DNA of 64,000 nt, from positions 64,001 to 128,000 of the forward strand of contig JBHLOC010000002.1 in the NCBI GenBank assembly GCA_048940925.1. The letters run 5' to 3'. Below are positions 2,670 through 60,724 of this stretch, in pieces. The position numbers and the translations under genes are program-made. Source of the DNA: Promethearchaeota archaeon (GTDB taxonomy: Archaea > Asgardarchaeota > Lokiarchaeia > Sigyniarchaeales > SOKP01). The notes beneath the pieces are model-generated. The model was not told the origin of the DNA and searched no databases. It saw only the letters and a list, made by a program, of their open reading frames with translations. The stretch's first letter is position 1. Every line of letters starts with the position of its first letter.

Positions 2670-3431
2670 TTATAATTTCTTCAGTAATGAACTGATTTCA
2701 GTTGGCATAAAAATTACAATCTTTTGAGACGGTTCATGAGAAATATCTTGAATTGTTTGGAGTGTTCTTAACTGGATTGCTGCTGAATTTGAAGCTAATA
2801 ATTCTGCAGCTTTAGCAATATTTTGTGCTGCTTCATATTCACCTTCTGAAGCGATAATTGTAGCGCGTTTTTCACGTTCTTTTTCAGCTTGTACTGCCAT
2901 TGCTCGTTTCATGTTTTCTGGTAATGAAATTTGTTGAATCTTAATTTGACTGATTTCTATTCCCCATTCTCTCGTTTCTTCATCAACTACTTTACGTATT
3001 CCTGTGGAAATTTTTTCTCTCTGAGTTAACACTTCGTCAAGTTCCATACCTCCGATGACATCTCTCAAAGCTCCTTGAGTGTAATTGAATACGGCCCTAA
3101 CATGATTTTCTATCTTTGTAGTTGCATATTCAGGATTAATCACCTTATAAAATACACTTGTATCTACAGTAACAGGAATGTTATCCTTAGTTATTATATC
3201 TTGCTTAGCTATGTCCAATGTTTTAATTCTTATATCAATACTTAACGACTTTTCAATGAGAGGTAATACATAAACAATACCGGGACCGATGGTTCTTTTG
3301 TATTTTCCAAATCGAAAAATTATAAGCCGATTATATTCTGTCGCAGTCTTAATTCCTGTTAAAATCCATATAATAACAAAAAATAGGATAATGCCAACAA
3401 CAACACCGATAATAGCAAATTCTGTTGAAAT
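2670..3431 (-). CDS. SPFH/stomatin (band 7) family protein; probable ATT start
   Basis: QDIITKDN, LRDVIGGMELDEVL, AMAVQAEKERE, QLRTLQT. Frame extends 71 codons upstream of the tracked TTG through a TM helix and FRFGKY..IGPG to an ATT after GGAGGG. Confidence 0.88.
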   Translation of the reverse strand: MSTEFAIIGVVVGIILFFVIIWILTGIKTATEYNRLIIFRFGKYKRTIGPGIVYVLPLIEKSLSIDIRIKTLDIAKQDIITKDNIPVTVDTSVFYKVINPEYATTKIENHVRAVFNYTQGALRDVIGGMELDEVLTQREKISTGIRKVVDEETREWGIEISQIKIQQISLPENMKRAMAVQAEKEREKRATIIASEGEYEAAQNIAKAAELLASNSAAIQLRTLQTIQDISHEPSQKIVIFMPTEISSLLKKL

Positions 3432-3737
3432 TTTAATCCCTCCATAATTATTTTTTTATTTTTAAGCATAGAGATTTATTTTATTGTAAATTGGATTGAC
3501 ACTTTAATTAAATAAGAAGGGAAATATAAAAATCTTACTATAAATATTATAATTCTCTTTCTTCCAAAGAATTTCCTATTTCTTTAAAATTAATCTATTA
3601 AAATAATCAAAATATTTGTTATAACTACTGCCAACATCTTTTGAATTCTTAACAAAATTAGATTCGGTTTAATTTTGCTATTCTTATAAAAGGTTAAGAT
3701 TTTTAAACAACTTTCTGAGATATGAGGAAATAGAAAG

Positions 3738-3863
3738 TTAGTCTAATAGAGTAAAAGAACAGTTATCTTCTCCGCATCCTGGGCATTTAAACTCCTCATC
3801 TGGGAAATCATCTAAGTCAAATTCATGACCACATTTATCGCATTTAAATTTTAAAAATCCCAT
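3738..3863 (-). CDS. 41-aa rubredoxin/zinc-ribbon microprotein (not in ORF track)
   Basis: Own translation: MGFLKFKCDKCGHEFDLDDFPDEEFKCPGCGEDNCSFTLLD*, two CxxC motifs. Confidence 0.75.
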   Translation of the reverse strand: MGFLKFKCDKCGHEFDLDDFPDEEFKCPGCGEDNCSFTLLD

Positions 3864-4073
3864 AAATCCCCATTGGCAGTAGTATTAAGCATCCTAATTA
3901 TTAAATTAAAATTATCGTAAATTTAAATTTTTAGGAATAGGGATGCCTAAAAGTATACTTATATATAGATTCATAATAATTTTTTAATATTTTGTTTAAC
4001 TGTATCAATCTACATTATTATAAATATTATGACTCAAGGAAATGATAATATTTTGTAATATATTATCTATATT

Positions 4074-4607
4074 TTAAGTAATAATCTTAAAGACTATTTT
4101 TTGATAAATCTCCTGAAAGTTTTGATGATTTAAATTAAAAATACTTACATTTGGAAGATCCAAAATGAAATTTTTCACTGGATGTTTTAATTTTAATCCT
4201 ATTGTAGCTAAAATGGTAACATCAGAAGAAAATATATTTCTAATAAAATTTTGAAATTTTTTAGAATACAGCTCCATTTTTCCAATCTCATCAATAACCA
4301 ATAAATTTATCTCATTAAATTCAATAAGTTCTAATTTTGATATCATTTCCTCAAGTTCTTCTACAAATACAGAATACTTTCCTACTTTATATTTGGTGTC
4401 ATAATTTCCAATACGTGCTAATTTTCTATACTCTTGAGAATAAATATCTTTTATATCAAAACCAATTCGGTTACCCTTTTTCCTTATTTCTGGTGTTAAA
4501 AATCCATGAATTGTATAATTCAACTTATTAAAATAATCCAACAATTTAGAGATCAGGGTACTTTTTCCACACCTAGGTGGACCGGTAATAAGTATTTTTG
4601 GTTTCAA
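4074..4607 (-). CDS. NTPase (NTPase_1/THEP1 family)
   Basis: ILITGPPRCGKST, GFLTPEIR..G.RIGF, VGKY, VIDEIGKMEL. Confidence 0.9.
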   Translation of the reverse strand: MKPKILITGPPRCGKSTLISKLLDYFNKLNYTIHGFLTPEIRKKGNRIGFDIKDIYSQEYRKLARIGNYDTKYKVGKYSVFVEELEEMISKLELIEFNEINLLVIDEIGKMELYSKKFQNFIRNIFSSDVTILATIGLKLKHPVKNFILDLPNVSIFNLNHQNFQEIYQKIVFKIIT

Positions 4608-4714
4608 TTTTTACTTGCTTGAATTTTTTTGATTTACTTGTATCAATACTCAAACTATATATATTTTGCAATGAAATAAAATTTAATACTCATAATAAAT
4701 GATGTGAAGCGATT

Positions 4715-5554
4715 ATAAGGCGTTTTGATGGAGAATTTATTGGACTAGATCATACAAACCTTTATTATCAAGCTTGGATACCCGATAGTGAACCTAAAGC
4801 TATAATTATAATGCTACATGGGTTTGCGTCACATTCTGGACGATTAATTAATGTTGTAAATGCCCTTGTGCCTTTAAATTACGCAATTTTCGCTAATGAT
4901 CATCGGGGTCATGGAAAGTCTGGAGGTAAAACAAATTTTGCTAAGAATATGGATCAATATGTAGAAGATGAAAGGATTTTCTATGATATTGTTAAAGAAA
5001 AGTATGTTGACTTACCGATTTTTATGTTGGGTCACTCAATGGGGTCAGGAATTACATTTTATTTTGCAAAAAAATATGAAAATCTTTTAAAAGGAATTAT
5101 TATTTCTGGCTCTGGTACTAAATATGGAGGTGATGATATACCAGGAATAGTAAAAACATTAGCAAAAGTAATGTCTAAAGTTGCCCCAAAATTTTCTGCT
5201 AAAACTAGTTTGGATCCTAATTTACTTTCTCATGATACTGAAGTTGTAAAAAAATATAAAGAGGACCCTCTTGTGCATTATAAAAAAACAACTGTGGGAC
5301 AAGTAAATGCTATGTTTGAAAGTTTTAAAAAATTACCTAATATCGTAGGAGATATAAATTATCCAATCCTAATACAAAAAGGATTAGCAGATGCTACAGT
5401 TACTGGATATGATGAATTAAAGAATGCGTTAAAGACTGAAAATGTTACAATTCAAGAATATGATGGTTTATATCACGAAATTTATAATGAATCAGAAGAG
5501 GATCGAGAAAGAGTTTTAAAAGACCTTAGAGAATGGTTAGAAAATCATATTTAG
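4715..5554 (+). CDS. Alpha/beta hydrolase, lysophospholipase/monoacylglycerol lipase family; probable ATA (or ATT 4712) start
   Basis: HG..SH, DHRGHGKS, GHSMG, YHEIYNE. Frame extends upstream through LYYQAWIPDSEPKAIII to ATA/ATT, with an in-frame TGA at 4700. Confidence 0.85.
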   Translation: MRRFDGEFIGLDHTNLYYQAWIPDSEPKAIIIMLHGFASHSGRLINVVNALVPLNYAIFANDHRGHGKSGGKTNFAKNMDQYVEDERIFYDIVKEKYVDLPIFMLGHSMGSGITFYFAKKYENLLKGIIISGSGTKYGGDDIPGIVKTLAKVMSKVAPKFSAKTSLDPNLLSHDTEVVKKYKEDPLVHYKKTTVGQVNAMFESFKKLPNIVGDINYPILIQKGLADATVTGYDELKNALKTENVTIQEYDGLYHEIYNESEEDRERVLKDLREWLENHI

Positions 5555-5599
5555 AAAATGAAAAAACAAATAGATATATAAAAATATTTTTTTTCAACC

Positions 5600-6733
5600 C
5601 TATTTATTCAATTCTTGAAACTTTAATAACAGATCTTTTTGTTTATCACTTATTTTCTGAGGAATTTCAATATTTACTATTACATATTGGTCCCCACGAC
5701 CTCTTCCCCGTAAATACGTGATTCCTCTATTTTTAATTCGAAATTCGGTTCCAGGCTGAGTTCCCGCTGGAATTGTTAGTTCTTTTTCAGTAATTTTCTC
5801 TTCTTTATGATCTAAAGTTGGTACTGTAATCTTCCCTCCTATGATTGCGGTGACCACATCTACATTAATAGGAGTGTAAAGATCATTCCCTCGGCGTATA
5901 AAATTCTCATTCTCTTTTATTCGAATACCTAAATAAAGATCACCTGGAATAGCATTGACAGAAGGTACATGTCCGGCACCTTGAACTTTTAAATGAACTC
6001 CATCTTCCACTCCGGGTGGTATTTCGACGTGAATTGTTTTTTGTTCGGAGACAACTTTTGAACCATTACAAACCTTACATTTCTTTTCAATTATTCTTCC
6101 AGAACCATTACATCTGTTACATCCTGTTTCACGGATGATAGTGCCAAATCCAGACTGTGACATTTTTCTTATTCGTCCTGTTCCTTGGCATTCTGGGCAT
6201 GTGATTATACTTGAAGGATCTTCTGCGCCTGTTCCCTCACAAGCATCACAAGGAGTGTATCGTTCTATAGTCACATCTTTTTTTACTCCAAACATAGCTT
6301 CTTTAAAACTAATTTCAATATGATCTTCAATATCTTGTCCTACTTCACGACGAGGTGCTGCTCTTCTTCTTGCTCTTGAGCCAAAGCCACCAAATCCAAA
6401 ATCATTGAAACCGCCAAAAGGACTAAAATCACCAAAAATCGACCGAAAAAGTTCATCTATTCCAGGAATACCTCCACTGAAAATATCACTCATATCAATG
6501 TGGACACCACTGTGTCCAAAACGATCATAATTACGTCTTTTGTTCTCATCGCTTAAAACTTCATAAGCTTCTTGGAGTTCGATAAATTTCTCCTTAGCTT
6601 GTGGATCTGTTTTATTCACATCTGGATGTAATTTTCGAGCTAATCTACGATATGCTAATTTAATATCGTTTAAAGTAGCATCCTTGTTTACTCCTAGAAC
6701 TTCGTAGTAATCTCTTTTTTTACTAGAACTCAT
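5600..6733 (-). CDS. dnaJ: Chaperone DnaJ
   Basis: J domain with HPD, G/F-rich region, four CxxCxGxG-type repeats, GDQYV C-terminal domain. Confidence 0.97.
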
Positions 6734-6839
6734 GATTTATTAGATTCTTGTTATTATTGAATACGTTCTAAAATCAAGTAAATAAAATTGTTTTTGAAAT
6801 TTAATTTTTTAGGTATTTGGTAATTAAATAGTTAAATTC

Positions 6840-7229
6840 CCAAATTTTTAAATTTCGACAAATTAATAGGAATTCATCAAAAAACTTGGCAAATTTGCTT
6901 TCCACATTATAAGAAAGGAAAACTAAATCAAACCCACTATATTACAGTGGATTGAAAGACTATGCCTAAAGGATCATAAAGAATTTCTAGAGCAAACATG
7001 CACTTTTGAACGTTTAAATCTCTTGTCAAACATGAAATTTAACTTATTAATCGTAGATTTAGATAAAATTAACCTACGTCAAGATTTAATATACTTCAAA
7101 TCTGATTCTTATAATTTTTTCGAAGAATTAAATTTGAGAGTGGAAGAAATGGAAATATCACTTTTGCTTGGATGTTCTATTGACCCTTTAATTGCTAATA
7201 ATGAAAATATGGAACTAATGGATGTATAA
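6840..7229 (+). pseudogene. Possible degraded or frameshifted ORF of unknown family
   Basis: Two overlapping open stretches (FLNFDKLIGIHQKTWQICFPHY... and ILQWIERLCLKDHK...MELMDV) with no good start. Confidence 0.25.
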
Positions 7230-7267
7230 CAAAAAAAATGATTCTTAGGATGTATAACAAAAAAAAA
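7220..7267 (+). repeat. Direct repeat GGATGTATAAC-A(8-9), two copies
   Basis: Copies at about 7220 and 7248. Confidence 0.7.
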
Positions 7268-7331
7268 GTTATGCTCATATGGGTCTTATCGAAAAATGAT
7301 ATCTTTTTAAATTAAGAGATCTATAAACAAT

Positions 7332-7706
7332 TTGATTATGAATAAAAGGGATCCGAAGCTAACAGCCCTTCTGTTTAATGAATGTATTAATAATCAAGAT
7401 ATCAAAAGGCTTACAAGTCTAATGTCAGATGACCATGTATTTATCGATCGTCATGGAGATTGTTATGGAGATATGGTTAAGGGGTGGATGGAGTTTTTTG
7501 ACAATTATTCTACCTATAAAAACATTTTTACCAGAATTGAATCACAAGATAACTTAGTAATTTTAATAGGTTATGCCAAATGGTCTAAAGACTCTTTAGA
7601 AGAAGATCATGCAATTTGGACAGCAACCATCGAGAATGATCTCGTCACTAAATGGCAGATTTATGAGGATACGGAAAAAAATAGGAAAAAACTCAATATA
7701 TTTTGA
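7332..7706 (+). CDS. NTF2/SnoaL-like protein
   Basis: FNECINNQDI..L..LMSDDHVFID...W..FF...KWQIYED pattern. Confidence 0.75.
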   Translation: MIMNKRDPKLTALLFNECINNQDIKRLTSLMSDDHVFIDRHGDCYGDMVKGWMEFFDNYSTYKNIFTRIESQDNLVILIGYAKWSKDSLEEDHAIWTATIENDLVTKWQIYEDTEKNRKKLNIF

Positions 7707-7796
7707 ACTAGCTAATAATATTTAATCTTTTTATATTATTAACATGTAAATTTATATAAAAAAATAGATAATTAAAAAGGAAACATCAATTGGGAA

Positions 7797-9809
7797 TCAG
7801 TCCTCATCCCAATCCACATCTACGACCTTCTTTTTCTTGTCTTCTTCTTTTTCTTTTTCAGTTTTGTATGAAGCTCCTCCAGTACCCGCATCTGCGCCAC
7901 CCATCCCGCCAGGGGGTACACCACCCATCCCCCCAGGGGGAACTCCTCCCATCCCACCAGCTGCACGTTGGGCTTGTTCAGCAGCTTGTTGATATACTTG
8001 ATCTTGAGCTTGTGAAGCATATATTCTCTGCGAAAAACTATACATGGATTTCTGTAAATTTTCTATTCCCAATTTAATCCGATTGACATCATCAGTTTTA
8101 ATATCCTCTTCTAATGATGAAATTGCAGATTCAATTTGTTGTTTTTCATTATCTTGAATTTTATCTTTATTTTCATCTATTAATTTTCTTGTTTGATAAA
8201 TCATCGAATCAGCATTATTTTTTGCTTCAACCAATTCTCTCACTTTTTTATCTTCATCTTCAAATTGGGAAGCTGTTCTAATTTTTTCTTCAATCTCTTC
8301 AGGGGTTAATCCTTGGGCGCCTGTAACCGTAATCCCAGTTTCTTTCCCAGTCCCTAAATCTTTTGCGGTTACATGCACTATTCCATCAGCATCAATTGAG
8401 AATTTAACTTCTATTTGAGGAACACCTCGAGGCGCTGGAGGAATTCCAGTTAGATGAAACATACCTAAGGAAATGTTATCCTTCGCCATTGCTCTCTCTC
8501 CTTGAAGAACATTAATTGTAACAGCAGGCTGATTATCTGCTGCTGTACTAAACTTCTCAGCTTTTTCAGTTGGTATAGTGCTATTTCTTTCAATTAATTT
8601 AGTAAATACTCCTCCGAGCGTTTCAACTCCAAGTGAAAGAGGAGTAACATCTAATAATAGAAGATCTTCCACATCTCCTGCAATAATTCCTCCTTGAATC
8701 GCAGCTCCTATTGCAACACATTCCATTGGATCAACTCCATGTTCTGGTTCCTTTCCGAAAAACTTTCTAAATCGTTCTTGGACTGAGGGCATTCTAGTTG
8801 GACCCCCAACCAATATAACTTTGTGTACATCAATAGCGGATATTTTCGCATCAGAAACAGCTCTTTGCATTATTGGGTCTAGCCTTCTAAGAGTAGGTTC
8901 TATTAATTGCTCTAATTTTGCTCTTGTAAGTTCCATATTAATATGAACAGGATTACCTTCTTTTTGTGAGATGTAGGGTAAATCAATCGTAGTGGAAAGG
9001 GTTGTCGATAATTCAATTTTAGCTCTTTCTCCAGCATCTTTAATTCTGATCATTGCTTTACTGTCCCCTCTTAAATCAATCCCTTCTTTCTTTTTGAATT
9101 CTTCAGTTACCCAATCAATTATCGCGTTGTCCATATCAGTTCCACCCAACTGGGTATCTCCTGCTGTGGAAAGGACTTCAACTACATTTTCACCGTATTC
9201 AATAATTGTTATATCGAATGTTCCACCTCCGAGGTCTAGAACGCAGATTTTCAACAATTTATCTCTTGTATCTTTATCTAAACCATAAGCTAAGCATGCT
9301 GCAGTAGGCTCGTTAATCATTCGGACAACTTCAAGCCCTGCAATTTCACCCGCATTTTTAGTGGCGGTTCTTTGAGCATCATTGAAATAGGCAGGAACTG
9401 TTATAATAGCTTTTTTTACAGGTTTTCCGAGATATGCTGAGGCATCGTTTTTAATCTTAGTTAAAATCATGGCTGAAATCTCTTCGGGTGAGAATTCTTG
9501 TAATTTATCCCCTACTTTCAATTTTGCTTTATAGGAGGTACCCATCTTTCGTTTTATAGCAGTGATCGTACCATCAGGATTACTTACCGCTTGTCTTCGA
9601 GCAGGTTCACCTACTATCTTACGTCCATTCTCATCGAAAGCTACGTATGAAGGGAAGGCTTTTCCTCCGAGTGTTCTTCCCTCCGCAGCAGGTACTATTT
9701 CAGGTTTTCCTGTTGGTGTTAAAACGGCACATGCGCTATTGGAAGTACCAAGGTCGATCCCGACAATAGTCTCCTTTTTTGTTGGTTTTTTTGATTCTTC
9801 TTCACTCAT
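7797..9809 (-). CDS. dnaK: Chaperone DnaK (Hsp70)
   Basis: [47 protein letters not shown]. Confidence 0.98.
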
Positions 9810-12282: not shown

Positions 12283-12289
12283 TCTGATA

Positions 12290-12691
12290 TTATCTTTTTA
12301 AATTATTTCTAACAAATTCGACAATTGTTTTTAAGTCAGTGCCAGGACCATAAAAACCTTTTAAACCATGCTTTTCTAAAAAAGGTTTATCTTCATCAGG
12401 AATAATTCCCCCAACTGCAACAAGAACATCATCTATACCATGTTCTTTTAACTTGTCCATGATTATTGGACATAATGCATTATGAGCTCCCGACAACATA
12501 CTTAACATTACTGCATCAGGATCTTCCTGAATAACAGTATTCACAACATCATCTGGAGTCTGGTGAATTCCTGTGTAAATTACCTCCATTCCAGCATCCC
12601 TTAGAGCCCTAGCAAGAACTTTCGCACCTCTGTCATGACCGTTCAAACCTGGCTTACATACAAGAATTTTTATTTTTTTACTTTCTGACAT
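12290..12691 (-). CDS. Acyl-CoA mutase small, cobalamin-binding subunit
   Basis: KPGLNGHDRGAK (DxHxxG variant with N), SMLSGAH, GGIIP, GPGT. Confidence 0.93.
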   Translation of the reverse strand: MSESKKIKILVCKPGLNGHDRGAKVLARALRDAGMEVIYTGIHQTPDDVVNTVIQEDPDAVMLSMLSGAHNALCPIIMDKLKEHGIDDVLVAVGGIIPDEDKPFLEKHGLKGFYGPGTDLKTIVEFVRNNLKR

Positions 12692-12705
12692 TTAATATCA
12701 CCAAA

Positions 12706-19415: not shown

Positions 19416-19740
19416 GAGTTTTTAAAATAAAAAGAAGGTAGTCGTAAATATCGTGAGTTACTAAATATTAAATGTATTTAATTTTAAGTCTTATCAAAAA
19501 TAATAAAAAAAAGGATTGGTCATTATTTTAGCAATCTTTTTCTTCTAATCTTTTATAGAGATATATTGAATCTAAAACTTCAAAATATTTAATAATTCGA
19601 TTTTCCCAAGTTTAAAATTAACTTATAATTCAACCTTGAGAGTGTCAAAAAATTTATTAGAAATACGGTATTTATAATCTCAATTGTTTATTTGTATTTG
19701 TAAATTACTTTATTACTTCAATTAAAAAAGGTGTATTATC

Positions 19741-20373
19741 ATCGCCCATAAACGTCCGTGGCACTGTTATTCGAAATGGACTCGTAGACCATATCAATAT
19801 AAGAGATCATCTAATCGTAGACGAGAGTTTGCTCGAGGGGGAGCCCAAAGTAAGATAGTGAGATACTGGGGAGGAAATAAATTAATTCCATGGGAAGATT
19901 GGGACTTAACAGTCTCACTCAAATGTAATCATCAAGTCCAAATTTCATCAAACACACTCGAGGCAATAAGAATCACAATAAATGGTGTACTTCAGCGTAA
20001 ATTGGGTCGACCTAACTATCGACTTAGAGTACGTCCAAAACCATTTCATAAAATAAGAGAAAATCGTATGCTTGCTTTTGCGGGAGCAGATCGCGTCCAA
20101 TCAGGTATGAGAAACTCTTTTGGAAGGTCTACAGGAGTTTGTGCACGAGTAAAAGCAGGACAAATAATTATTGATATTGGCACTTATATAAAGAATCTTC
20201 CTCTTATAAGAGATAGGCTTAGAGTAGCTTCAATGAAAATACCAAGCTCATGTCAAATTGTCGTCACTAAATATAAAACTCCAGAACTTTTAAAACAGTC
20301 AGGTTTACCATTATATGATGCTAAAAAAAGAAGAGAAATCCCACTTTATGAATTACAATTAGCTGAAACCTAA
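19741..20373 (+). CDS. rpl10e: 50S ribosomal protein L10e (uL16); probable ATC start
   Basis: N-terminus AHKRPWHCYSKWTRRPY, LEAIRI, RENRMLAFAGADRVQSGMRNSFG. In-frame TAA at 19723, and no ATG/GTG/TTG precedes the conserved N-terminus. Confidence 0.92.
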   Translation: MAHKRPWHCYSKWTRRPYQYKRSSNRRREFARGGAQSKIVRYWGGNKLIPWEDWDLTVSLKCNHQVQISSNTLEAIRITINGVLQRKLGRPNYRLRVRPKPFHKIRENRMLAFAGADRVQSGMRNSFGRSTGVCARVKAGQIIIDIGTYIKNLPLIRDRLRVASMKIPSSCQIVVTKYKTPELLKQSGLPLYDAKKRREIPLYELQLAET

Positions 20374-25793: not shown

Positions 25794-27509
25794 ATGGGAG
25801 AAAAGACCATAAATCCTAATAAAAAACCTAAATCCAAGAAGAAAAAAATTTTAGTAGAACATAAACCAATAGTTATAGGAGGCATAATTGCTGCAGTAGC
25901 AATAGCTGGAATTGTTGGTGGTATTGTTTTATTTTTAGGTGAAAAGAAAATAGGGGGTACTTTTATTTTTGGCTACGGTGGAGGGCTTGATAGAATAGAC
26001 CCTCTTATTGCAAATTTATATGATCCAATAATCATTGCTAGCATTGCTGAGCCATTATTCACTGAATATTATAATCAAACTGGTAAATATTATGAAAACT
26101 CCCCACATTTGGCAGAAGAAGGAACTTGGAGCCCTGATGGTTTAAATTTTACTTGCACTCTAAAGAAAGGGGTTGAATTTCATGACGGTACGAAATTTAA
26201 CGCCTCAGCAGTTAAGTGGAACTTCGATAGGCTACATAATTTGCTAGTCAATATGTCCATTTATGGTGTAGATTATTTGTGGTATCATCCGGATGGGACT
26301 CTTATTTTAAATAGGACCGAAATAATCAACGATTACACCGTAAGGTTTGTGTTGAATAGACCTTTTGTTCCTTTTCGAGCATTACTTACTATTCCTCACG
26401 CATACATTTTATCACCTGCATCTACTCCTGAAGACAGATTCCTTGATGCTTTCACTGAAAAATTAATTGGGACAGGTCCTTATATTTATGAATCCAATGT
26501 GGTATATGTTAATACAACTATAATAAAAAATAAAAATTATTGGGGTACTCCCAAACCCGTAATGGATACATATGTTTTCATTCCTTATTCTTATCAAGAA
26601 AGTAATGAACATTTTTTTGCAAAAGAAACTGATTATGCCGTAGGAAATGACAGCCTTTTAGAAGAATATAGCGCAGATTCTACGATTGTAGTAGACGATT
26701 TTGTAGAGCATGGATTCGATTATCTTGGAATGAATAACAAAAGGATAAACACCACGATGAGGAAGGCAATCTCTTATGCTTTAAATTACACCTCTATTCT
26801 TGAACTAGCTGATTCACTCTCACATGGATCAAATATAAGATGTAGATCTCCATTGTCGTTAGAAACTCTTTATTCAAATTGGGAAGATTTTGATGTCCCT
26901 TATTATAATATAACAAAGGCAAGACAAACTCTAAAGGATGTGAATTGGCCTGGAACTACTGATTTGACCGCAAATAATATTATAACTATTGGAAACGAGT
27001 GGGAAACGATAGCAAATATGACACCTCTTATGACACTTAATATTTCATATATTTTTGGAGGATGGAATTGGCTAGAAGAATTATCATATATCATAGTTGA
27101 TAATCTCAAACAAATTGGAGTAAAAGTCGAAAATCTACCCCTAACATATGAAGATCACTGGGATAATGTATTTGCTTCAAAAATAGACCTTTTCTGGCTA
27201 GGTTGGTTAATTGATTACAATGATCCTTCAAATACTCTTAATGCTATATTTTCAACTCAACTTGAAGGGTGGAATAATTTTCAACAAACTAATGATTCTA
27301 TTGTTCAAGGATGGCTGGACCAAGGAACAGTAGAGACTAATCCTTTTAATAGAAGTCGACTCTACTACGATATTCAGAGAGAGTTGATTGAAAGAGTGTA
27401 TCCCGTAGCTTGGTTATATTCTAATGTATGGTTTGACGTGTACCGATCGAATGTAAGAGGTTGGGGCATTTGGGGTGCGGGATCATTGAGATATATATAC
27501 CGCGTTTAG
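25794..27509 (+). CDS. Family 5 (DppA/OppA-like) solute-binding protein, copy 1
   Basis: LKKGVEFHDGTKFNASAVKWNFDR, GTGPY, RKAISYA, W..DYNDP. Basic N-tail plus TM anchor. Confidence 0.9.
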   Translation: MGEKTINPNKKPKSKKKKILVEHKPIVIGGIIAAVAIAGIVGGIVLFLGEKKIGGTFIFGYGGGLDRIDPLIANLYDPIIIASIAEPLFTEYYNQTGKYYENSPHLAEEGTWSPDGLNFTCTLKKGVEFHDGTKFNASAVKWNFDRLHNLLVNMSIYGVDYLWYHPDGTLILNRTEIINDYTVRFVLNRPFVPFRALLTIPHAYILSPASTPEDRFLDAFTEKLIGTGPYIYESNVVYVNTTIIKNKNYWGTPKPVMDTYVFIPYSYQESNEHFFAKETDYAVGNDSLLEEYSADSTIVVDDFVEHGFDYLGMNNKRINTTMRKAISYALNYTSILELADSLSHGSNIRCRSPLSLETLYSNWEDFDVPYYNITKARQTLKDVNWPGTTDLTANNIITIGNEWETIANMTPLMTLNISYIFGGWNWLEELSYIIVDNLKQIGVKVENLPLTYEDHWDNVFASKIDLFWLGWLIDYNDPSNTLNAIFSTQLEGWNNFQQTNDSIVQGWLDQGTVETNPFNRSRLYYDIQRELIERVYPVAWLYSNVWFDVYRSNVRGWGIWGAGSLRYIYRV

Positions 27510-31696: not shown

Positions 31697-31870
31697 TGTT
31701 AAATTATGATAGGTAAATTTTATGGTTGATAAATTATTTAGATAAGGGGAATTTTTATTAAAATTTTGTTTTATATAATAGCTTTGAAAATAAATTTTTA
31801 TATTGAAATCTCTTATAAGTTTATTATAATTCACATAATTACATTCTTTTAATTTTTTTGGTGAACCCCA

Positions 31871-32974
31871 ATCGTATTATTTATCACTTATGATCCAATC
31901 GAACGCTTTCTTTCAAGCTTGACTATTACTGCTTTAATTGTGTGTAGTATATTTTTTTTATTGCAAGGTCGAAAGAGAGAAGTGTATCATGAAAAAATCC
32001 TGATGTATGGTTTTGCGAGTTTATGGATAAGCATTGGCTTAACAAGACTTTTCTTTTATTTTAGCGACTATTGGTTAGTAGGAACCTATACTGGAGATGT
32101 AGAAAGCATTTTTCAAGTAAATAATCTCCTACAAATAATAATTTATTACTTTTACATGTATCTTTACATCTATATTTATATAAATGTAATAATATTATGT
32201 TTGATGTTTGTTTGGTTTTCCATTAAATTAAAAGTTGAATTTCAAGCAATTTCCTCGATGATGGCGCTTGGTTTTACTGTATTTTTAATTGGTTGGACAT
32301 TTGAGGCAGTATCGATAAAAGCTTTAGGTTTTTTATTTTCTGGAATATCCTCTATACTTGTTTTAATCGGAGTTTTAATTGCAATTTCTCCCTTAGTGCT
32401 TGAGTTCGAATTCTTTTCTAGAAGATTAGCAATTTGGTTAATTATATCAATTATTGGTTTTATAGGCGTTTTTCTTACTTCTACATTCATCTTTAATCTT
32501 GAAACAATTGCCTTAATTTTAGTTATGATTGGATTTTTCTCAATATTATTAGGTTCAGTAATAGTATATATGATATTTTATGCAATTAGATCAACTAAAG
32601 CACCGAAGGAACAGAAAGAAGAACTTCAAGAAACATTAAGATTCTTTACTAGACGCCAAAAGTTTACAGAAGAAGAGGTCGCATTTCATAGAGAAAGAAA
32701 AATTTGTTTAGTGTGCAAAACTCATATTTCAAGATTAAGCTATATTTGCCCGGAGTGTGATGCTCTATATTGTGTTAAGTGCTCTGAGGCATTAAGTAAT
32801 TTAGAAAATGCATGTTGGGTTTGTGAAACCCCATTCGATGAAACTAAAGCCGTTCATATTGTGAGAGAAGAAAAGGCACTTTTAGAAGTTGATGAGACAA
32901 TCGTTTCTGAAATTGAAGATAAAAAAAGTAAAAAAGCACCTAAGAAAATTAAAAATGATATGAAAAAGAATTAA
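31871..32974 (+). CDS. Multi-pass membrane protein with C-terminal C4C4 RING-like domain (candidate E3 ligase); probable ATC start
   Basis: About 7 hydrophobic segments, then C-x2-C-x10-C-x2-C-x4-C-x2-C-x10-C-x2-C. GGTGA + 6 nt + ATC lies upstream of the tracked TTG. Confidence 0.7.
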   Translation: MVLFITYDPIERFLSSLTITALIVCSIFFLLQGRKREVYHEKILMYGFASLWISIGLTRLFFYFSDYWLVGTYTGDVESIFQVNNLLQIIIYYFYMYLYIYIYINVIILCLMFVWFSIKLKVEFQAISSMMALGFTVFLIGWTFEAVSIKALGFLFSGISSILVLIGVLIAISPLVLEFEFFSRRLAIWLIISIIGFIGVFLTSTFIFNLETIALILVMIGFFSILLGSVIVYMIFYAIRSTKAPKEQKEELQETLRFFTRRQKFTEEEVAFHRERKICLVCKTHISRLSYICPECDALYCVKCSEALSNLENACWVCETPFDETKAVHIVREEKALLEVDETIVSEIEDKKSKKAPKKIKNDMKKN

Positions 32975-33283: not shown

Positions 33284-34963
33284 ATGGTAGTAGAAAAACC
33301 TAAAACTAAGAAAAAAGTTTTGAAAAAGAAGAGGTTTATATCAGAACATAAACGATTAGTAGCAGGAGGAATAATAGTTGCTATTGCTATCGCAGGAGTT
33401 ATCAGTGGCATTGTTCTTTTTGTTGAAGAGCCGAAAGGAGGAATTTGTATAATAGGGATTATAGGAGAGATTGGAGACATTGACCCTATCATCCATGGAT
33501 AATCTGGATTCCACGATGAGATAGTAGTTAATCAAGTTGCCGAAACTTTATTTGATTTCGATCATAGTGGTAAACAACCTATACTTATATATACTTTAGC
33601 AAAAAATTATAAGTGGAATGATGAAGCAACAGAATTAACCTGTTACCTTAGAAAGGGGGTTAAATTCCATGATGAAACCCCATTTAATGCGACAGCAGTT
33701 AAATGGAACTTCGATAGAATCCATCGTTTGGTCACGTGTTGGGCTAAGTATTTATTCTTATTACCTGATGGACGCTGGATTGTGAATAAAACTCAAGTTA
33801 TAGATGAATATACTGTAAAATTTGTAATAAATGAACCTTTTGTTCCATTTTTACATTTGTTAACTCTTGCTACTACTGGCATTTTATCGCCAACATCCAC
33901 ACCTGCTAATAAAACCATTAACATAAATACTGATGATTTAGTTGGGACAGGACCTTTCACGTATGATGAGTATGAACCCCATGTTAATATAACAATGATT
34001 CCAAATTAACATTACTGGGGAAAGACACCTAGAATAGACAAATTGGTTTTTCAATTTTATGAATATCCCACTGAAGGTGAGGACTTATGGAATGCACTTT
34101 TAGCAAAAGAAATTAGCATTTTAGAGCCTTATTTCTATATACTATATCCGAATTGGTCAATCCAGACTCTCAAGAATGATCCAGGGATTACAGTTCGAGA
34201 AAAGCCACCTACTAATTATCGTTTTATTGGAATGAATAACAAACTCATTAATCTTACCATGCGAAAGGCAATCTCATATGCTATTAACTATACTTACATG
34301 GCTGAGGATATTTTGCCCAACAAGGCAGTAAATGCTCGTTCTTCTATTCCAGAAGGGATCATCTACTCCGATACGACTTCATTTGATGTTCCTTATTATA
34401 ACATTTCATTGGCACGACAAATATTAAAGGATGTGGGGTGGCCTGGAACCTCTGATTTAACAGCAAATGATGATATTAGTGCTGGTAACCCCTGGGAAAT
34501 GTTAGTTTCTAATGAAACACCTCTTGCGACATATACATTGGATTATATACCCGGGAATCCATTATCTACTGGTATGGCATTTCCCGTTCCAAATAATCTC
34601 AAACAAATTGGAGTCAAGGTAATAAATCAATTTAATTGGTCCTTTCCGTTGCAGCTTGTTGCATTGGGCTAGATATATGATTATAACGATCCACATAATG
34701 CTATGTTAGATTACTATAGTAAAACCAACTGGATACAAATGAATGATAGTTTGGTCGACCAATGGATAGAAGAAGGGTTAAGAGAGACTAATCCTGCTCT
34801 CAGAGAAGAGATATATTATAAGATTCAAGAACGCATTATGGAAGAACTATATCCTGTTATATTTACCTTCTCTAGTATAGAATTTAATATACAGGTAAAA
34901 AATTTGAGAGGTTGGCAACCTAATCCACTCAAAACCCAATTAAAAAACGTCTATTTTGTATAA
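33284..34963 (+). pseudogene. Family 5 solute-binding protein, copy 3, with three in-frame stops
   Basis: Four tracked ORFs share one frame. Stops are TAA 33500, TAA 34007 and TAG 34670 (at the conserved Trp of LGW..DYNDP). Sequence between the stops remains homologous. Confidence 0.85.
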
Positions 34964-45515: not shown

Positions 45516-46115
45516 CTACAATGCTTCGTATCCTAATCGTAAGGCTTTTAAATTAGCTTCAATAGCTTTCTTAGGTACTACTTTCGGAATGATATCTATC
45601 AGCTGTTCCAAACCTAATGGGAAACCGTTAATTTTAGCTAGAGAACCTAAAAGAGCAACATTTAAGGTAAGGGGGTTACCTGCTTTTTTAGCTATATCTA
45701 AAGCATCTATAATATGAATATTTTTTGTCACCTCTCGTAATTGTTCTACTATCCTTCCAATAGTAATGTATGGTATCTCAGGATTTTTCACTCGCTCAAA
45801 AGTACTTTGAATAGGATGCCATATATAGTTGTTTAAAATAATAATTCCATTCGGTTGTAAGTATTCTATATATCTCAATGTTTCTATCGCTTCTATTCCA
45901 AGTAAAACATGCGCTTCTCCGTAAGGAATTAAGGGAGAATACACTTCCTTTCCAATACGAATATGTGTATAGATTGAGCCTGAACGCTGAGCTAATCCAT
46001 GAGTTTCTGCAGTTCTAATTTTTAAACCGAATTCAGCACAAGCTAATCCTAAGATATTTGACATTAGCATTAACCCTTGACCTCCAACACCACATGTCAT
46101 TATGTTATAAGTCAT
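45516..46115 (-). CDS. iorB: Indolepyruvate:ferredoxin oxidoreductase beta subunit
   Basis: GVGGQG, ETHGLAQRSGS, N.ALLG. Confidence 0.9.
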   Translation of the reverse strand: MTYNIMTCGVGGQGLMLMSNILGLACAEFGLKIRTAETHGLAQRSGSIYTHIRIGKEVYSPLIPYGEAHVLLGIEAIETLRYIEYLQPNGIIILNNYIWHPIQSTFERVKNPEIPYITIGRIVEQLREVTKNIHIIDALDIAKKAGNPLTLNVALLGSLAKINGFPLGLEQLIDIIPKVVPKKAIEANLKALRLGYEAL

Positions 46116-53771: not shown

Positions 53772-53874
53772 AATTGTAATATTCAATCACTCCAGCACAC
53801 CAAAATTTTATATTAAACTAAACCTAGTCTTACATTAAAAAAAAATTATATTTTCATTAAGAATTAGAAATCTG

Positions 53875-54417: not shown

Positions 54418-54595
54418 AAAATAGTATGAATCCATGAAATTATATATTTTAATTTTTTAACATTTCTCTATTTTTAGTTTTATGATGATATATCAAGAAG
54501 TTAACATATTTGAAAAAAAATTGAAAATTACATTTTTTTAGCTACCTTCGATAAACACTTTAAAGGTTTAATACCTTCAATTATTAATTGAGATT

Positions 54596-54997: not shown

Positions 54998-55214
54998 TTA
55001 GATTGGGGGCTATAGTAAATAAATTCTCAATTTTTTGAAAAACATAGTAAAGATATAATTAGATCAAATTTTTATTTAATCTACTATCTGAGAAATATTT
55101 TGCTTATACCTAAAGCATAGAATAACTTGTCTTTCAGGAAAATTTAATATAAATTTTCTAGCATTTTTTAAGTCTATTTTTTAATTCAGTATTAAAATTC
55201 TCCTAAGATAAATT

Positions 55215-55808
55215 ATGATAGTAGATCATCTTGATAAAACGATTAGCATAAAAATTGTATATTTTGGTCCAGCTTTATCAGGTAAGACGACTTCTATAAA
55301 ATCTCTATTTTCTCACTTTGGTAAAAAGGAAGACTTAAAATCGATTGAGAGCACTGTAAAAAGGACTTTATTTTTTGATTATGGTGTGGTGACATTCCAA
55401 AATGAGGAATGGTTGTTAAAAATTAACATTTATACTACAACTGGTCAAGATTTTTACATTATAACAAGACCAATTACTATACGGGCAGTTGATGGGATTA
55501 TTTTTGTTATCGATTCCCAAAAGAAAGTATATGAAAGGAATTTAATTTCTTGGAATGAATTAACATCATATTTTCAAGATGTTCTTAACAATATTCCAAT
55601 TATAATAGCCTTTAATAAACAAGATTTACCAGATAAATTCAATTCTATACAATTCCTAAAAAGAATCACCTTTCAAAAGTACAAAAGAATGGATTCACGA
55701 AATACTATAGCTATTAATGGAGAAGGTATTTTAGAATGTTTTGAAGAGATATTAAGATTAATTTTGAAAAAATATTTTGATTATAAAGAAATTTCAGCAG
55801 TTCATTAG
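55215..55808 (+). CDS. MglA-family small GTPase
   Basis: KIVYFGPALSGKTT, RTLFFD, TTGQ..Y...R, VDGIIFVIDS, NKQDL, A..GEGI. Confidence 0.85.
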   Translation: MIVDHLDKTISIKIVYFGPALSGKTTSIKSLFSHFGKKEDLKSIESTVKRTLFFDYGVVTFQNEEWLLKINIYTTTGQDFYIITRPITIRAVDGIIFVIDSQKKVYERNLISWNELTSYFQDVLNNIPIIIAFNKQDLPDKFNSIQFLKRITFQKYKRMDSRNTIAINGEGILECFEEILRLILKKYFDYKEISAVH

Positions 55809-55828
55809 AGAATATAGTTCAAGTTTAC

Positions 55829-57049
55829 CTAAAAAAAACTTGCTTCCGCGACAGGTGTTTGTATCCTAATACTTTGTTGACTGTTATCTTCTAAAATAGT
55901 AATAAGAGCTGAAATATCCTGCTTAATTTCATAGATAATCTCTTTTTCTTCATCCTTTTTCCATATATTAAATCCAGTTAAATTTGGAGCAGTTTCAAAT
56001 AATCCTTCTTGTAACCCTAATACTTTAACAGTCACACCTTGAAGCTTTTCTTTTGAGATATTCTTTATTCTTAATTTATATCTATCGATATCAGAGTCAA
56101 TAGAAATGACCTTATAGACTTTTTGAAATTTAGAAGAGATTCCGTCGAATAAAGAAGAAGCTTCAGCAGCACCACCCGCGAATAAATCAACACCAGCTTT
56201 TTCTTCTGAAATAGGACTTCCTGTAATTGTAATAGGGACTTCTAATTTGATTGGTTCTTGCCCAAATTCAGGTTTCTTTTTTCCTATAATTAATAATGAC
56301 CATTTGGTATAAGCACCATAACGAAAACCAAAAAGTTCTTTTTCAGAAGGAGACCATAGATAATTATGAGTTGGTTCTGCGATTTCAGGGACTTTTAAAA
56401 GCAAAAATCCTTTATCAATATTTGTGGTTTTGCTATCACCTGCTATTGCGGGTGGGAGTTCTTCAACTTTACTGCAATTTTGCCCATATGCTTCACAGTA
56501 GCACACTATATTTGCATTTTGTAAAAGTCTTACTTCAATCTCTCTTAGAATATCAGAGGTGAAACTTATTTTAATTGTTTCACCAGGTTTATAAATGTCT
56601 TTAGTAAGTAAGACATTTAATCCTGAAATTGAAAATGAAATAGGATTTGGCATTTTAGTTTGAAGACCAGAGTCTTTTGCTTTTATCTCTATATCATGAG
56701 TTTTATTAATAATTAACTCATCTTCAGGATTGATTGGATTTGGTTGTCTTAATATTAATTTTAAAAAATATTTTAAATTTCGATTCTTAATGGTAGGAAC
56801 TACATTTGATTTTATTAAAAGGGATTTTTCTCTGATATATTCTCCTGCTTCAAAATGGCCTTTACTAAACACTTCCTCTTTAGAGACCTGAAGCTCTCTC
56901 AAACATGGAGGATTTGTAATTAATCGAATACCACTCCACAAAATATCAGAGTCTTTCTCAAAATTAAATTTAGTTCTAACAGTAAGCTTATCTCCAATGA
57001 ATACAGAACCTTCACCTAAGTCTCTTAATTCTAGTTTTACCAAGTCCAA
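55829..57049 (-). CDS. Arrestin-fold-like protein
   Basis: Beta-rich. L.KDIYKPGETIKI....REIEVRLLQ...LEVPITI matches the arrestin C-domain pattern. Confidence 0.55.
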   Translation of the reverse strand: MDLVKLELRDLGEGSVFIGDKLTVRTKFNFEKDSDILWSGIRLITNPPCLRELQVSKEEVFSKGHFEAGEYIREKSLLIKSNVVPTIKNRNLKYFLKLILRQPNPINPEDELIINKTHDIEIKAKDSGLQTKMPNPISFSISGLNVLLTKDIYKPGETIKISFTSDILREIEVRLLQNANIVCYCEAYGQNCSKVEELPPAIAGDSKTTNIDKGFLLLKVPEIAEPTHNYLWSPSEKELFGFRYGAYTKWSLLIIGKKKPEFGQEPIKLEVPITITGSPISEEKAGVDLFAGGAAEASSLFDGISSKFQKVYKVISIDSDIDRYKLRIKNISKEKLQGVTVKVLGLQEGLFETAPNLTGFNIWKKDEEKEIIYEIKQDISALITILEDNSQQSIRIQTPVAEASFF

Positions 57050-57300
57050 ACAGATTTAACGTTTATTATTATCTTAATTTTATTATTTAAAATATAGACT
57101 TTTATAAAAATTTTTTATTATTAATTGTTAAGACTTATGGATTTAAGTATTTTAGCTATACATTTAAGATTTTTTTCAAGAGTGTTAAAGTGTTAGTGAA
57201 TTTATAAGAATTATTCGTACGTATGAGTCAAAATTATTAAATTGTCGATAAGTAAATAATTTAACTCAATATTATTATTATAATAGAAAAAAGAAGTATT

Positions 57301-58032
57301 ATGATTAAGAAAATGTCAAAAAGATTAGGCTCTACTATTAAAGCAATTCTCTTCGATCTAGATAAAACACTTCTTGAAGTCGACCTAGATATGTTTGTCT
57401 CACAATACATAAAACTTTTAGCCCAAAGCGTAGCTTCTCTAAATATATCTCCTAAAAAGTTTATTTCAAAGTTAATGAAAGCTTCCAGAGCTGTTGAGAG
57501 AAATAATGGTCATATTACAAACGAAGAAGTGTATGCTAATGCTTTTTTTCCTTTAGAAGGGCATTCTAGAGAGGAAATCGAACCTTTTTTCGACAAGTTT
57601 TATAAAAATGATTTTCATAAATTAAAACAATGTACTAAAAGAAAACCTGAAGCAAGAGAAGTGGTTCAAACTGCTTTTGATAAGGGTTATGATGTAGTAA
57701 TAGCTACGATGCCAATCGTGCCAAGAATTGCTATTGAAAAACGTCTTGAATGGGCCGGTGTAGCGGATTTTCCTTATCGTTTAATCACCACCCTCGAAAA
57801 TAGTTGTGCTTCTAAATCTTTAATTCATCTAATATATTATGAGCAAATTTTAGATAGAATCGGTTATAGTGCGGAGAATTGTCTAATGGTTGGCGATGAG
57901 GATAGAGATATGGTTTGCAAACGACTCGGATTACAAACTTTTCTAATTGAAGGTAATCATAAGAAATGGGATAACAGTGTTCCAGAACCAACATATAGAG
58001 GTTCTTTGGAAGTTTTAAAATCTTTACTTTAA
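57301..58032 (+). CDS. HAD-superfamily hydrolase
   Basis: FDLDKTLL, IAT, K, CLMVGD..RD. Confidence 0.9.
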   Translation: MIKKMSKRLGSTIKAILFDLDKTLLEVDLDMFVSQYIKLLAQSVASLNISPKKFISKLMKASRAVERNNGHITNEEVYANAFFPLEGHSREEIEPFFDKFYKNDFHKLKQCTKRKPEAREVVQTAFDKGYDVVIATMPIVPRIAIEKRLEWAGVADFPYRLITTLENSCASKSLIHLIYYEQILDRIGYSAENCLMVGDEDRDMVCKRLGLQTFLIEGNHKKWDNSVPEPTYRGSLEVLKSLL

Positions 58033-58384
58033 TATTTTACGCTAAGGCCATGTATATCCAATTTTTGTCATACTATAAATATGAGTGGGATCTTCTATTA
58101 GTAATTTAGCTAAACATTTAGAACAAAGATAAACTTCTTTAGTCTTACCACTAAAGAAGCACATAAATAACTTCTCTTTCTTTAAACAGCCCTCACATCT
58201 CATCATTCAACTTATAATCTTTTATGAAAAGATAAAAATATTTTTATTAAATTCTCAATAATTTTCGGATGAAATTTTCTTTTTATACTCTGAAGCTATA
58301 AGAGTTAAAGTTAAATACAAAATCTTTTATAATTTTTTTTAAAAAGAAAATACTTTACTTCCCATTATTATCCCATCACTTTGA

Positions 58385-59257
58385 ATGTTATTTTTAGAGC
58401 TTACAAAAATGAATGATCTCATATTGTTATGTTTGATTATGTTTATGTGTGTAAGGGCTATAGGATTAGGAGTTTCGATTGATTTCTTTTATGATTCAAA
58501 AGATCATAAATTCTTATATTTTATATTATGTTGGTGTTTTTGGATTGTCGCTAATATTTTTCCGATAATTGTTGATTTGACAGAAATTAATATTTTAATG
58601 GAGTTTTATCTCGTGTTAAATATATTGTTTGCTGTTCTCGGCTTTGTTTTTTATATTTGGGGATTTTTCAAATATTATCTAAAAGTGCCTTTTAGATTTA
58701 TGGTATTTTTAACAATAATTACCATAACAATTCCCCTTTTACTATATATTATAATTGATTATATAAGTGCAATTCTGTTTTCTATGTTCCTTCTTAATAT
58801 TTTACTTTTAGGTGGTTACATTATACCTCTAGTAAAAAAGAAAGACTTTATTAAATATATGGGAAAAAGTTTAAGATGGTATTTTGCGATAATATTAACA
58901 TTTATTATTTATTTCCCCGTTTCAGCTATAAGCATCTCATTGGGCTATAGTTATGGACTGTATAATGCTGAAAATACATTGATTATAATACTGTATTATG
59001 TTCCTACTATTAGCTCTACTTTTTTACTTATTATATTACTTGTTCATCTTGAATATACCATTTCTTCTCGGGAAAAATTTGGACTGAAAGATAAATATTC
59101 TCATAATCTAGGAAATATTATGCAAGTAATTTATAGTGCTTCTGACATTGTTAAGAGGACAACTAAAATAGAAAATGAAGAAGAAGAAAAATTAGACTTG
59201 ATTGAAAGAAAATGTAAGGAAGCTTCTAAATTAATAAAAGAGATTAGGAAACTTTAA
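58385..59257 (+). CDS. Multi-TM sensor with a HisKA(DHp)-like tail but no HATPase domain, copy 1
   Basis: About 7 TM, then DKYSHNLGNIMQVI H-box. Ends after the second DHp helix. Confidence 0.7.
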   Translation: MLFLELTKMNDLILLCLIMFMCVRAIGLGVSIDFFYDSKDHKFLYFILCWCFWIVANIFPIIVDLTEINILMEFYLVLNILFAVLGFVFYIWGFFKYYLKVPFRFMVFLTIITITIPLLLYIIIDYISAILFSMFLLNILLLGGYIIPLVKKKDFIKYMGKSLRWYFAIILTFIIYFPVSAISISLGYSYGLYNAENTLIIILYYVPTISSTFLLIILLVHLEYTISSREKFGLKDKYSHNLGNIMQVIYSASDIVKRTTKIENEEEEKLDLIERKCKEASKLIKEIRKL

Positions 59258-59280
59258 AACATCTTTTCGGAGGGATCAGT

Positions 59281-59436
59281 ATCGCCAATATATTTATAAT
59301 TTATAATAATCAAGACCTTGTTGCGCTTTTTAAACGATTCTTAGGATTAAAGGGACATCAATTATTTGCTAAAGTGTTTAATCTTGGTTTGATATATATT
59401 AAATATTTTTATATCTCAAATTTATCATATTGTTAA
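59281..59436 (+). pseudogene. Truncated, degenerate response-regulator remnant
   Basis: IANIFIIYNNQDLVALFKRFLGLKGHQLFAKVFN aligns to the N-terminus of the 60347 gene; acidic pocket residues are lost. Confidence 0.75.
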
Positions 59437-59463
59437 GCATTAAAGAGAGAGGTTAGTTGTACT

Positions 59464-60312
59464 ATGCATGAACTTATATTTTTTAGTATGTTGTTATTAG
59501 TCTTCATAAGATTACTTGGAATTATTGTCTCGGTGAATTTTTACTATGAATCAAAAACTAATACATACATTTATCTCACTATTGGATGGTGTTTTTGGGT
59601 TATCGCTGGCATTGTTACTCTACTTTCTGCAATTGTTATTAATCAAACGCAAGAAAAATTATTTCTTTTAATGAATTATATTTTTGGACCATTAGCAATA
59701 TTTTTTATAACATCTGGACTATGCTCTTATTATATTAACATCTCTTCTAATAAAATTAGAGTTTTCTCTGTGGTCTTAATAATTTTACCCCTAACTATTT
59801 ATCTTTCTTTAGGTATAATTCTTGTCGCGTTTTATGCCCGGATTTTTCAGTTTTTGGGAATCATATTTATGATCTTAATACCTATTTTAAAGTACAACAC
59901 TTTTAAGAAAAAAATTGGGAAAAGCATTAGATGGTATTATCTAATGTGCTTTTCAATAGCTTTATATATACCGATAGCAGTTTTTAGTATGATTACTTCT
60001 ATATCCTCCGGTTTATTCCAAAGTGAAAATATTACTATAATCGTTGGAGCGTATTTATCTATCATAATAATGACTATTTTGCTTATAGCATTCATAATTC
60101 ATTTAGAATATACCATATCTAATAAACAACAATATCAATTGAAAGATAAATATTCTCATGAATTAGGAAATATTATGCAGGTAATTTATAGCGCTTCTGA
60201 CATTGTCAAGAGGATAACTAAATTAGAAAATGATGAAGAAGAAAAATTAAACTTAATTGAAAGAAAATGTAAGGAAGCTTCTAAATTAATAAATGAAATA
60301 AGAAACATCTAA
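59464..60312 (+). CDS. Multi-TM sensor with a HisKA(DHp)-like tail but no HATPase domain, copy 2
   Basis: DKYSHELGNIMQVI. C-terminus is nearly identical to copy 1. Confidence 0.7.
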   Translation: MHELIFFSMLLLVFIRLLGIIVSVNFYYESKTNTYIYLTIGWCFWVIAGIVTLLSAIVINQTQEKLFLLMNYIFGPLAIFFITSGLCSYYINISSNKIRVFSVVLIILPLTIYLSLGIILVAFYARIFQFLGIIFMILIPILKYNTFKKKIGKSIRWYYLMCFSIALYIPIAVFSMITSISSGLFQSENITIIVGAYLSIIIMTILLIAFIIHLEYTISNKQQYQLKDKYSHELGNIMQVIYSASDIVKRITKLENDEEEKLNLIERKCKEASKLINEIRNI

Positions 60313-60346
60313 TTATTTTTTAAAAAAGAATTTCTGAGGGATTAAA

Positions 60347-60724
60347 ATAGCTAACATCTTTATTATTGATGATGACAAAGATATAGTTCTATTATTTGAA
60401 CGACTTTTAGGATTAGAGGGACATCAAGTAATTGCAAAAGCTTTCAATGGGGAACAAGCTATAAAAATTTATAAAAATTTCCATAATTTTCCTGACATTA
60501 TTCTAATGGATCATAGAATGCCTCTTAAAAATGGTTTAGAGACTACTAAAGAATTATTGCGTATTGATCCTAATTGTAAGATAATTTTTATTAGTGCAGA
60601 TTATAGTGTTAAAAATGAAGCTTTAGAACAAGGTGCTATTGATTTCTTAGAGAAACCAATAGATTTCTCAACTCTTTTTAAATTAATTGAAAAATATAGA
60701 TTACCTGAAAGCAAAATTCACTAA
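60347..60724 (+). CDS. Single-domain (CheY-like) response regulator; probable ATA start
   Basis: IFIIDDD...PDIILMDHRMPLKNG...FISA...GAIDFLEKP. The tracked ORF lacks the first 53 codons. Confidence 0.88.
   Translation: MANIFIIDDDKDIVLLFERLLGLEGHQVIAKAFNGEQAIKIYKNFHNFPDIILMDHRMPLKNGLETTKELLRIDPNCKIIFISADYSVKNEALEQGAIDFLEKPIDFSTLFKLIEKYRLPESKIH

Follow-up and report, generated by a model that had tools for sequence, protein, structure and literature searches.

Roughly 2%–3% of the genes in a lokiarchaeon and its genus appear to start at ATT, ATC or ATA (collectively ATH in DNA, AUH in RNA), and rarely at ACG; these near-cognate codons sit at a fixed distance behind a strong Shine–Dalgarno motif (SD), and the genes for ribosomal protein L10e and the proofreading factor aIF1 are among the users. 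The trait was first seen in a 64,000-nucleotide stretch, hereafter the window, of Promethearchaeota archaeon assembly GCA_048940925.1 (contig JBHLOC010000002.1, here C41, positions 64,001–128,000). The window is part of a genome of 4.8 Mb with 30% GC from a genus of at least 54 species; relatives found through L10e are Promethearchaeota/Lokiarchaeia metagenome-assembled genomes, including SOKP01000096.1. We put the probability that SD-compensated near-cognate initiation is a normal, inherited feature of these genes at about 0.8; in the best reading, weakness of the start codon would be compensated by a strong SD, a motif that is absent from most ATG starts of this genome. The 3′ tail of the 16S rRNA, GAUCACCUCCU, is complementary to GGAGGG and its full end reads GGATCACCTCCT; therefore, GGAGG, AGGTG and GGTGA are true SD pieces. 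SDs have been called rare in Lokiarchaeia (PMC7531240, PMC12993045), and a strong SD (at least 5 nt) precedes only 12% of 372 confident ATG starts in the source genome.

Five intact genes of the window open at an ATH codon. They encode a 253-aa stomatin/SPFH (Band_7) protein (2670–3431, minus strand; ATT at 3431–3429, 6 nt behind a GGAGGG at 3438–3443 that is kept in orthologs), a 279-aa Hydrolase_4 lipase (4715–5554, plus strand; ATA at 4715, with a weak SD of GTGA only at 4704–4707), the 210-aa L10e (uL16; 19741–20373, plus strand, single copy in the genome; ATC at 19741, 7 nt behind AGGTG at 19729–19733), a 367-aa multi-pass membrane protein with a C-terminal Cys-rich zinc finger (31871–32974, plus strand; ATC at 31871 behind GGTGA at 31860–31864, the TGA of which is the in-frame stop) and a 125-aa stand-alone response-regulator receiver (60347–60724, plus strand; ATA at 60347 behind GAGGG at 60336–60340). 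All seven SD/start contexts quoted in the original prediction, six with ATH codons and one ATG reference, match the sequence exactly; the reference gene encodes a B12-binding domain (12290–12691, minus strand) and reads GGTGA, 6 nt, ATG. An in-frame stop lies 2–8 codons above the Ile codon in all five intact genes, and the first ATG, GTG or TTG follows it only after 71 codons in the stomatin gene (TTG at 3218), 32 in the lipase gene, 39 in the L10e gene (GTG at 19858), 16 in the membrane protein gene and 53 in the receiver gene (first ATG of the frame at 60506); no start other than the AUH codon is possible for these conserved frames. The N-termini, likewise predicted to be conserved within families, are covered by Pfam matches that, in four of the five genes, start before the first canonical codon is reached (Band_7, PF01145, residues 30–198; Hydrolase_4 from residue 26; L16/L10e from 21; Response_reg, PF00072, from residue 4 at profile position 1), so that initiation downstream would cut into the domain cores of these four proteins. 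The label RING given earlier to the membrane protein finds no support in Pfam, where only weak zinc-ribbon matches below the cut-off were obtained. The sixth ATH context, an ATC behind GGAGGG (59269–59274) that opens a 51-codon frame (59281–59436, plus strand), is exact but cannot serve as an independent example: it belongs to a shortened receiver duplicate (59018–59382 aligns with 60073–60448 at 295/362 identities), a pseudogene that has lost the acidic DDD pocket and diverges in frame after about 35 codons. As a remnant of tandem duplication, it is therefore counted once with 60347. The duplication (58385–60724, plus strand) comprises a membrane protein with a weak HisKA-like tail and the receiver, the first receiver copy being truncated. 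Elsewhere in the window (33284–34963, plus strand), an SBP_bac_5 solute-binding gene is split by stops into four same-frame pieces; its N-terminus resembles those of intact genes at 25794 and 28852.

Comparison of orthologs at the start position bore out the expected alternation, with L10e and the lipase exchanging ATH for canonical codons at the very same site. Across 80 related species, L10e starts with ATG in 57, ATC in 13, TTG in 7, GTG in 2 and ATA in 1, whereas 21 genomes from other families of the class have ATG (20) or GTG (1). In a quick tree, every ATH allele belongs to a single part of 44 rows; the tree needs eight changes of the start label, three of which are forced by strongly supported branches, so the label has switched at least three and up to eight times. 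ATC-started L10e genes have a median SD energy of −10.2 kcal/mol versus −5.8 kcal/mol for ATG-started ones, although these are kin and not independent. The stomatin gene retains a GGAGGG-like SD, 6 nt and ATT in 18 of the 22 displayed genus orthologs, in one of which TAG directly precedes the ATT; the other four have an ATG nearby. All 13 lipase homologs have ATG (5) or TTG (8), so the ATA is a swap private to the source species, whereas the receiver has ATA in 3/3 readable orthologs. Among 17 close homologs of the membrane protein, the start codon or the next one is always ATH, ATG or GTG, usually directly behind the in-frame TGA of GGTGA: ATT occupies position +1 in 12, and where +1 is GTA, GTT or ACA, position 0 is ATC or ATA. 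Codon and SD are thus conserved together among relatives for stomatin (18/22), the receiver (3/3) and L10e (14/80 with ATH).

These comparisons bear on the possibility that the odd starts are artefacts, be it of assembly errors, pseudogenes, overlooked canonical starts downstream or upstream exons joined by bulge-helix-bulge (BHB) splicing. Pseudogenes do occur in the genome (33284–34963 and 59281), as does at least one mRNA insert resembling a BHB intron, in aIF2-gamma, and the lipase ATA is confined to one species. However, the same codons recur in many independently assembled species and in other runs (the L10e ATC is identical in contigs assembled from runs of other studies), downstream starts would delete the Pfam cores and orthologs with ATG open at this very codon, so that a missing exon could not be accommodated. 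An artefact is hence highly improbable overall; for the L10e, stomatin, receiver and membrane protein genes it is already largely refuted. The lipase start at 4715 is covered by the contigs of those other runs but only partly cleared. A weightier alternative is that the pattern mostly reflects tolerated drift, whereby AT-biased mutation converts ATG to ATA or ATT where a strong SD is present, with no regulatory meaning outside aIF1. The private swap in the lipase, several other ATG-to-ATH pairs, the repeated switching on the L10e tree and the absence of a common function among the affected genes all fit this explanation; by contrast, 18 stomatin orthologs and 21 aIF1 genes all retain the ATT, even though synonymous ATA or ATC would serve for Ile, and 14 of the 15 ATH cases at L10e keep ATC, which is the least frequent Ile codon in the census zones described below (289 vs 1208 and 1051). 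We regard drift as possible, if not favoured, as the general explanation; for part of the genes it is compatible with SD-compensated initiation as an inherited feature.

The SD-anchored census of the whole genome, confined, for 3754 cleaned genes, to the codons that precede the first canonical one, yielded the predicted excess. This zone replaced an earlier census that was blurred by the reading-frame periodicity of SD-like words within coding DNA. A strong SD, here at least 5 nt at spacing 7–10, precedes 104/2548 ATT, ATC or ATA codons versus 143/14174 other codons (odds ratio 4.2, p 1.4e-24), with the same outcome in two relatives, that is, in three genomes in all. As anticipated from the window, the spacing is that of canonical genes: the ATH peak lies at aligned spacing 8, equal to those of ATG and TTG, and the ATG-like peak recurs in 80 family loci. 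Taken singly, ATT (42/1208), ATC (12/289), ATA (44/1051) and ACG (6/48) are each enriched (p <= 4e-6), ACG at ATG-like SD spacing (p 2e-6). The enrichment is codon-specific: that of CTG (2/71 in the census) is weak and not significant, AAG, AGG, TTA, AAA, AAT, TTT, GTA and CTA are flat, the AT-rich control codons included, and GTA, CTA, TTA and GTT starts show no enrichment as classes, single cases aside; ATA starts that have no SD but are coupled to an upstream stop through an ATAA overlap are not in excess either (ATA 17 vs TTA 14).

The excess amounts to about 78 ATH and 6 ACG genes, which is at least 2% of all genes and about one in five strong-SD starts; the census places the ATH genes at about 78–82, and our overall estimate is about 80–110 genes. 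In orthologous pairs, filtered to remove antisense frames, ATH was the best-SD codon in 27 of the 1092 genes with an N-terminally aligned ortholog, the choice being blind to codon identity; with two of the 27 doubtful and about six more missed by one register, this corresponds to 2.5%–3%. Counting ATG-to-ATH swaps alone gives about 0.5%–1%, a figure that misses genes with ATH in both species. The control, an SD-rich Ilyobacter chromid (350 kb, 338 genes, 34% GC), has an excess of 0.1 where about 7 would be expected at the lokiarchaeal rate; Escherichia coli and Methanocaldococcus jannaschii controls were too small to count, and the census sample from other Lokiarchaeia families, at 87 genes, was underpowered. 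The claim of a rate far above the typical one thus stands for the comparison with bacteria, whereas the window's own 8% (5 of about 60 genes) was a high draw from a genome-wide rate of about 2%–3% (the probability of at least 5 of 60 is about 0.04 at 3%). Collectively, the ortholog swaps, the conservation and the controlled census make it well supported that SD-guided AUH initiation is a lineage trait.

Several further unusual frames lie outside the window. ACG and CTG behind strong SDs head long frames without canonical starts on contigs C55, C56, C58, C67, C71 and C41 (outside the window), and single cases on C73 (plus strand, 20673 frame), C26 (minus strand, 12704 frame) and C40 (plus strand, 100737 frame) have TTA facing ATG or TTG, or GTC where the ortholog has ATA behind the same SD. 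On C5 (minus strand, 56874–57996), a frame conserved in three genomes lacks both an SD and, over 64 codons, any canonical codon; its ATA overlaps the TAA of the upstream gene, and a coupled restart or a frameshift is possible. Conserved frames on C72 (plus strand, 3585 and 5310) and C62 (minus strand, 62656) open right after an in-frame TGA, in the context G-U-x-C-K or W-U-x-H-C, and probably represent selenocysteine read-through rather than odd starts.

Ab initio gene finders shorten proteins with ATT, ATC or ATA starts. The N-terminal mis-annotation that was expected to be systematic is real for the lipase, present in databases as 247 and 250 aa instead of 279, but it is partial: NCBI already gives the full-length 210-aa L10e from ATC in three relatives (NVM38084.1, MFX1305015.1 and MEE9376433.1). 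The alternative initiators of NCBI translation table 11 include ATT, ATC, ATA and CTG; the same ATH codons are thus allowed there, whereas the use of ACG seen here lies outside the table. In model bacteria, ATT, ATC, ATA and CTG make up <0.1% of annotated starts (10.1101/063800), and the AUH-start trait is real and far above that rate.

Inspection of the initiation machinery found aIF1 (two copies in the source genome), aIF1A and aIF2 alpha, beta and gamma all present and brought to light no altered factor or tRNA that would explain a relaxation. No fidelity factor is missing, and the initiator tRNA is canonical, with a CAU anticodon, A1:U72 and three G-C pairs. Its gene (C31, 30449–30580, minus strand) has an anticodon-loop intron and an apparent second insert before the T arm. 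In the aIF2-gamma gene (C68, about 45855–45885, minus strand), a 30-nt insert that contains stops and has a BHB-intron-like fold interrupts the codon of the P-loop Lys; genomes G001 and G003 have stops at the same stretch and four metagenome contigs (L354–L357) have similar inserts, which G023 lacks. The main aIF1/SUI1 gene, outside the window (C31, about 2211–2528; locus L078:1426–1740; plus strand), begins with ATT in all 21 genus copies that could be read; a stop lies 1–3 codons above, and canonical codons are absent up to the zinc knuckle. The following Ile codon shows synonymous variation, whereas the start ATT is invariant. In other families, the start is ATA in at least two genomes and TTG or ATG in others. 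The conserved leader AGGTTGTGA contains a TTG-TGA start-stop in frame and, out of frame, a GTG frame of 5 codons with a TAA that overlaps the ATT. For the second aIF1 paralog, on C58, a GTG is available.

Could the machinery itself have changed, with a weaker aIF1 or an altered P site or initiator tRNA, so that AUH is read nearly like AUG through relaxed third-position pairing? The AUH rate far above the Ilyobacter control and the nearly uniform ATG starts of L10e in other families (20 ATG, 1 GTG) would agree with such a change, as would loop 1 of aIF1, RKWGR, set against the P. abyssi residues R31, Y32 and K34 that bind 30S (PMC6237735), and the failure to find TiaS (PF08489) in any of 61 Lokiarchaeia genomes searched. 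However, RKWGR is a conservative variant of the P. abyssi R31-Y32-G-K34 loop, RKWGK also occurs in sister families with ATG or TTG starts and the tRNA is canonical. Furthermore, the excess was measured behind strong SDs only, with no surplus of ATA at stop-overlap couplings, and ACG is enriched at the same spacing while AAG and AGG are flat; thus, of the relaxed start discrimination originally proposed, the AUH use holds but the relaxation is not of the third position only. We consider a changed machinery doubtful. An agmatidine-modified initiator was also considered and is not supported, TiaS not having been found in those genomes. A genetic-code change, with AUA read as Met throughout as in some mitochondria, could draw on the same missing TiaS and on the lack of a convincing tRNA-Ile call in the source genome. 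Yet, internal Met residues of relatives face ATA (232 of 4186) about as often as TTA (204) or ATT (179), so ATA behaves as Ile, contrary to a mitochondrial-type reassignment, and the enrichment of ATA starts is matched by that of ATT and ATC; we hold this explanation to be extremely improbable.

SD-compensated initiation is consistent with conserved frames without ATG, GTG or TTG being headed by ATT, ATA, ATC and some ACG codons that swap with ATG or TTG between species. Building on known archaeal initiation (PMC6237735, PMC7531240), we propose that the SD:anti-SD helix pre-positions the codon and would hold a near-cognate codon in the P site, where ordinary Met-tRNAi(CAU) would pair with two of three bases and pass the aIF1 check. 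The product would be a Met-started, full-length protein made with an efficiency below that of AUG, and a strong SD with a weak codon may be interchangeable with a weak SD and AUG for setting output. In E. coli, AUC and ACG reporters give a Met-started product, and AUH starts reach 1%–2% of AUG (10.1101/063800). By analogy with infC and eIF1, aIF1 with its invariant ATT might limit its own synthesis as IF3 does, and its self-limited level would then set the permissiveness for the other 80–110 or so genes. Lokiarchaeia would, in that event, run a start-codon-stringency regulon in which AUU-limited aIF1 tunes about 100 SD-led near-cognate genes, ribosomal protein genes among them, with SD-less starts being the rule for AUG genes; we offer this extension as speculative and rather unlikely. 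Several points weigh against SD-compensated initiation. The support for AUH starts comes from sequence comparison, and the exact codon is ambiguous by one at tandem Ile codons (ATT-ATC-ATC in L10e, ATT-ATA in the lipase). The SD of aIF1 is broken (AGGTTGTGA) and lies at the long edge of the spacing range. Moreover, L10e is needed in ribosome amounts, a poor fit with the 1%–2% efficiency in E. coli; either near-cognate initiation must be far more efficient here or the SD must make up for the whole shortfall.

If SD-compensated initiation holds, the few strong SDs of Lokiarchaeia would license a fourth start class, about as common as TTG among SD-led genes, and the N-termini of tens of proteins per genome would be corrected in a group with proteins that are commonly used for modelling and expression. 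In the lineage closest to eukaryotes, the ATG and ATC alleles of L10e and the ATT of aIF1 offer natural test cases of the way in which start selection is divided between aIF1 and the SD. Archaeal reviews list only AUG, GUG and UUG as starts (PMC7531240), and no paper on AUH starts in Asgard archaea came up in our literature search, which covered few subscription journals. Ribosome profiling of Haloferax volcanii detected near-cognate codons at about 30% of 160 putative alternative sites, which its authors set aside (PMC7261190); both cases place archaeal near-cognate codons at start sites, but main, conserved genes of the lokiarchaeon have no other possible start. Closer parallels are found in bacteria, where infC and pcnB of E. 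coli have AUU or AUA starts behind a strong SD (as cited in 10.1101/063800) and infC, cvfC1, ccpN and citZ of Staphylococcus aureus have them behind extended SDs (10.1101/2025.06.19.660503). The two sets share the AUH codon, the strong SD at normal spacing, the conservation and a fidelity factor among the users. The lokiarchaeal starts, predicted from sequence, differ from the bacterial ones in number, with about 80–110 genes here rather than the handful of two to four per bacterial genome. They also differ in setting, which here includes archaeal eukaryote-type machinery (aIF1, aIF2), an SD-poor background and a core ribosomal protein. Regarding the fidelity factor, the poor start of the aIF1 gene, kept across the group (21/21), parallels the AUU of IF3 and the autoregulation of eIF1 via a poor-context AUG (Ivanov 2010, as cited in PMC6237735); unlike in those systems, AUH also starts many unrelated genes here, and feedback by aIF1, encoded outside the window, is an analogy. 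Taken together, what is new relative to the bacterial precedent is the scale, the domain of life and the presence of a core ribosomal protein among the users.

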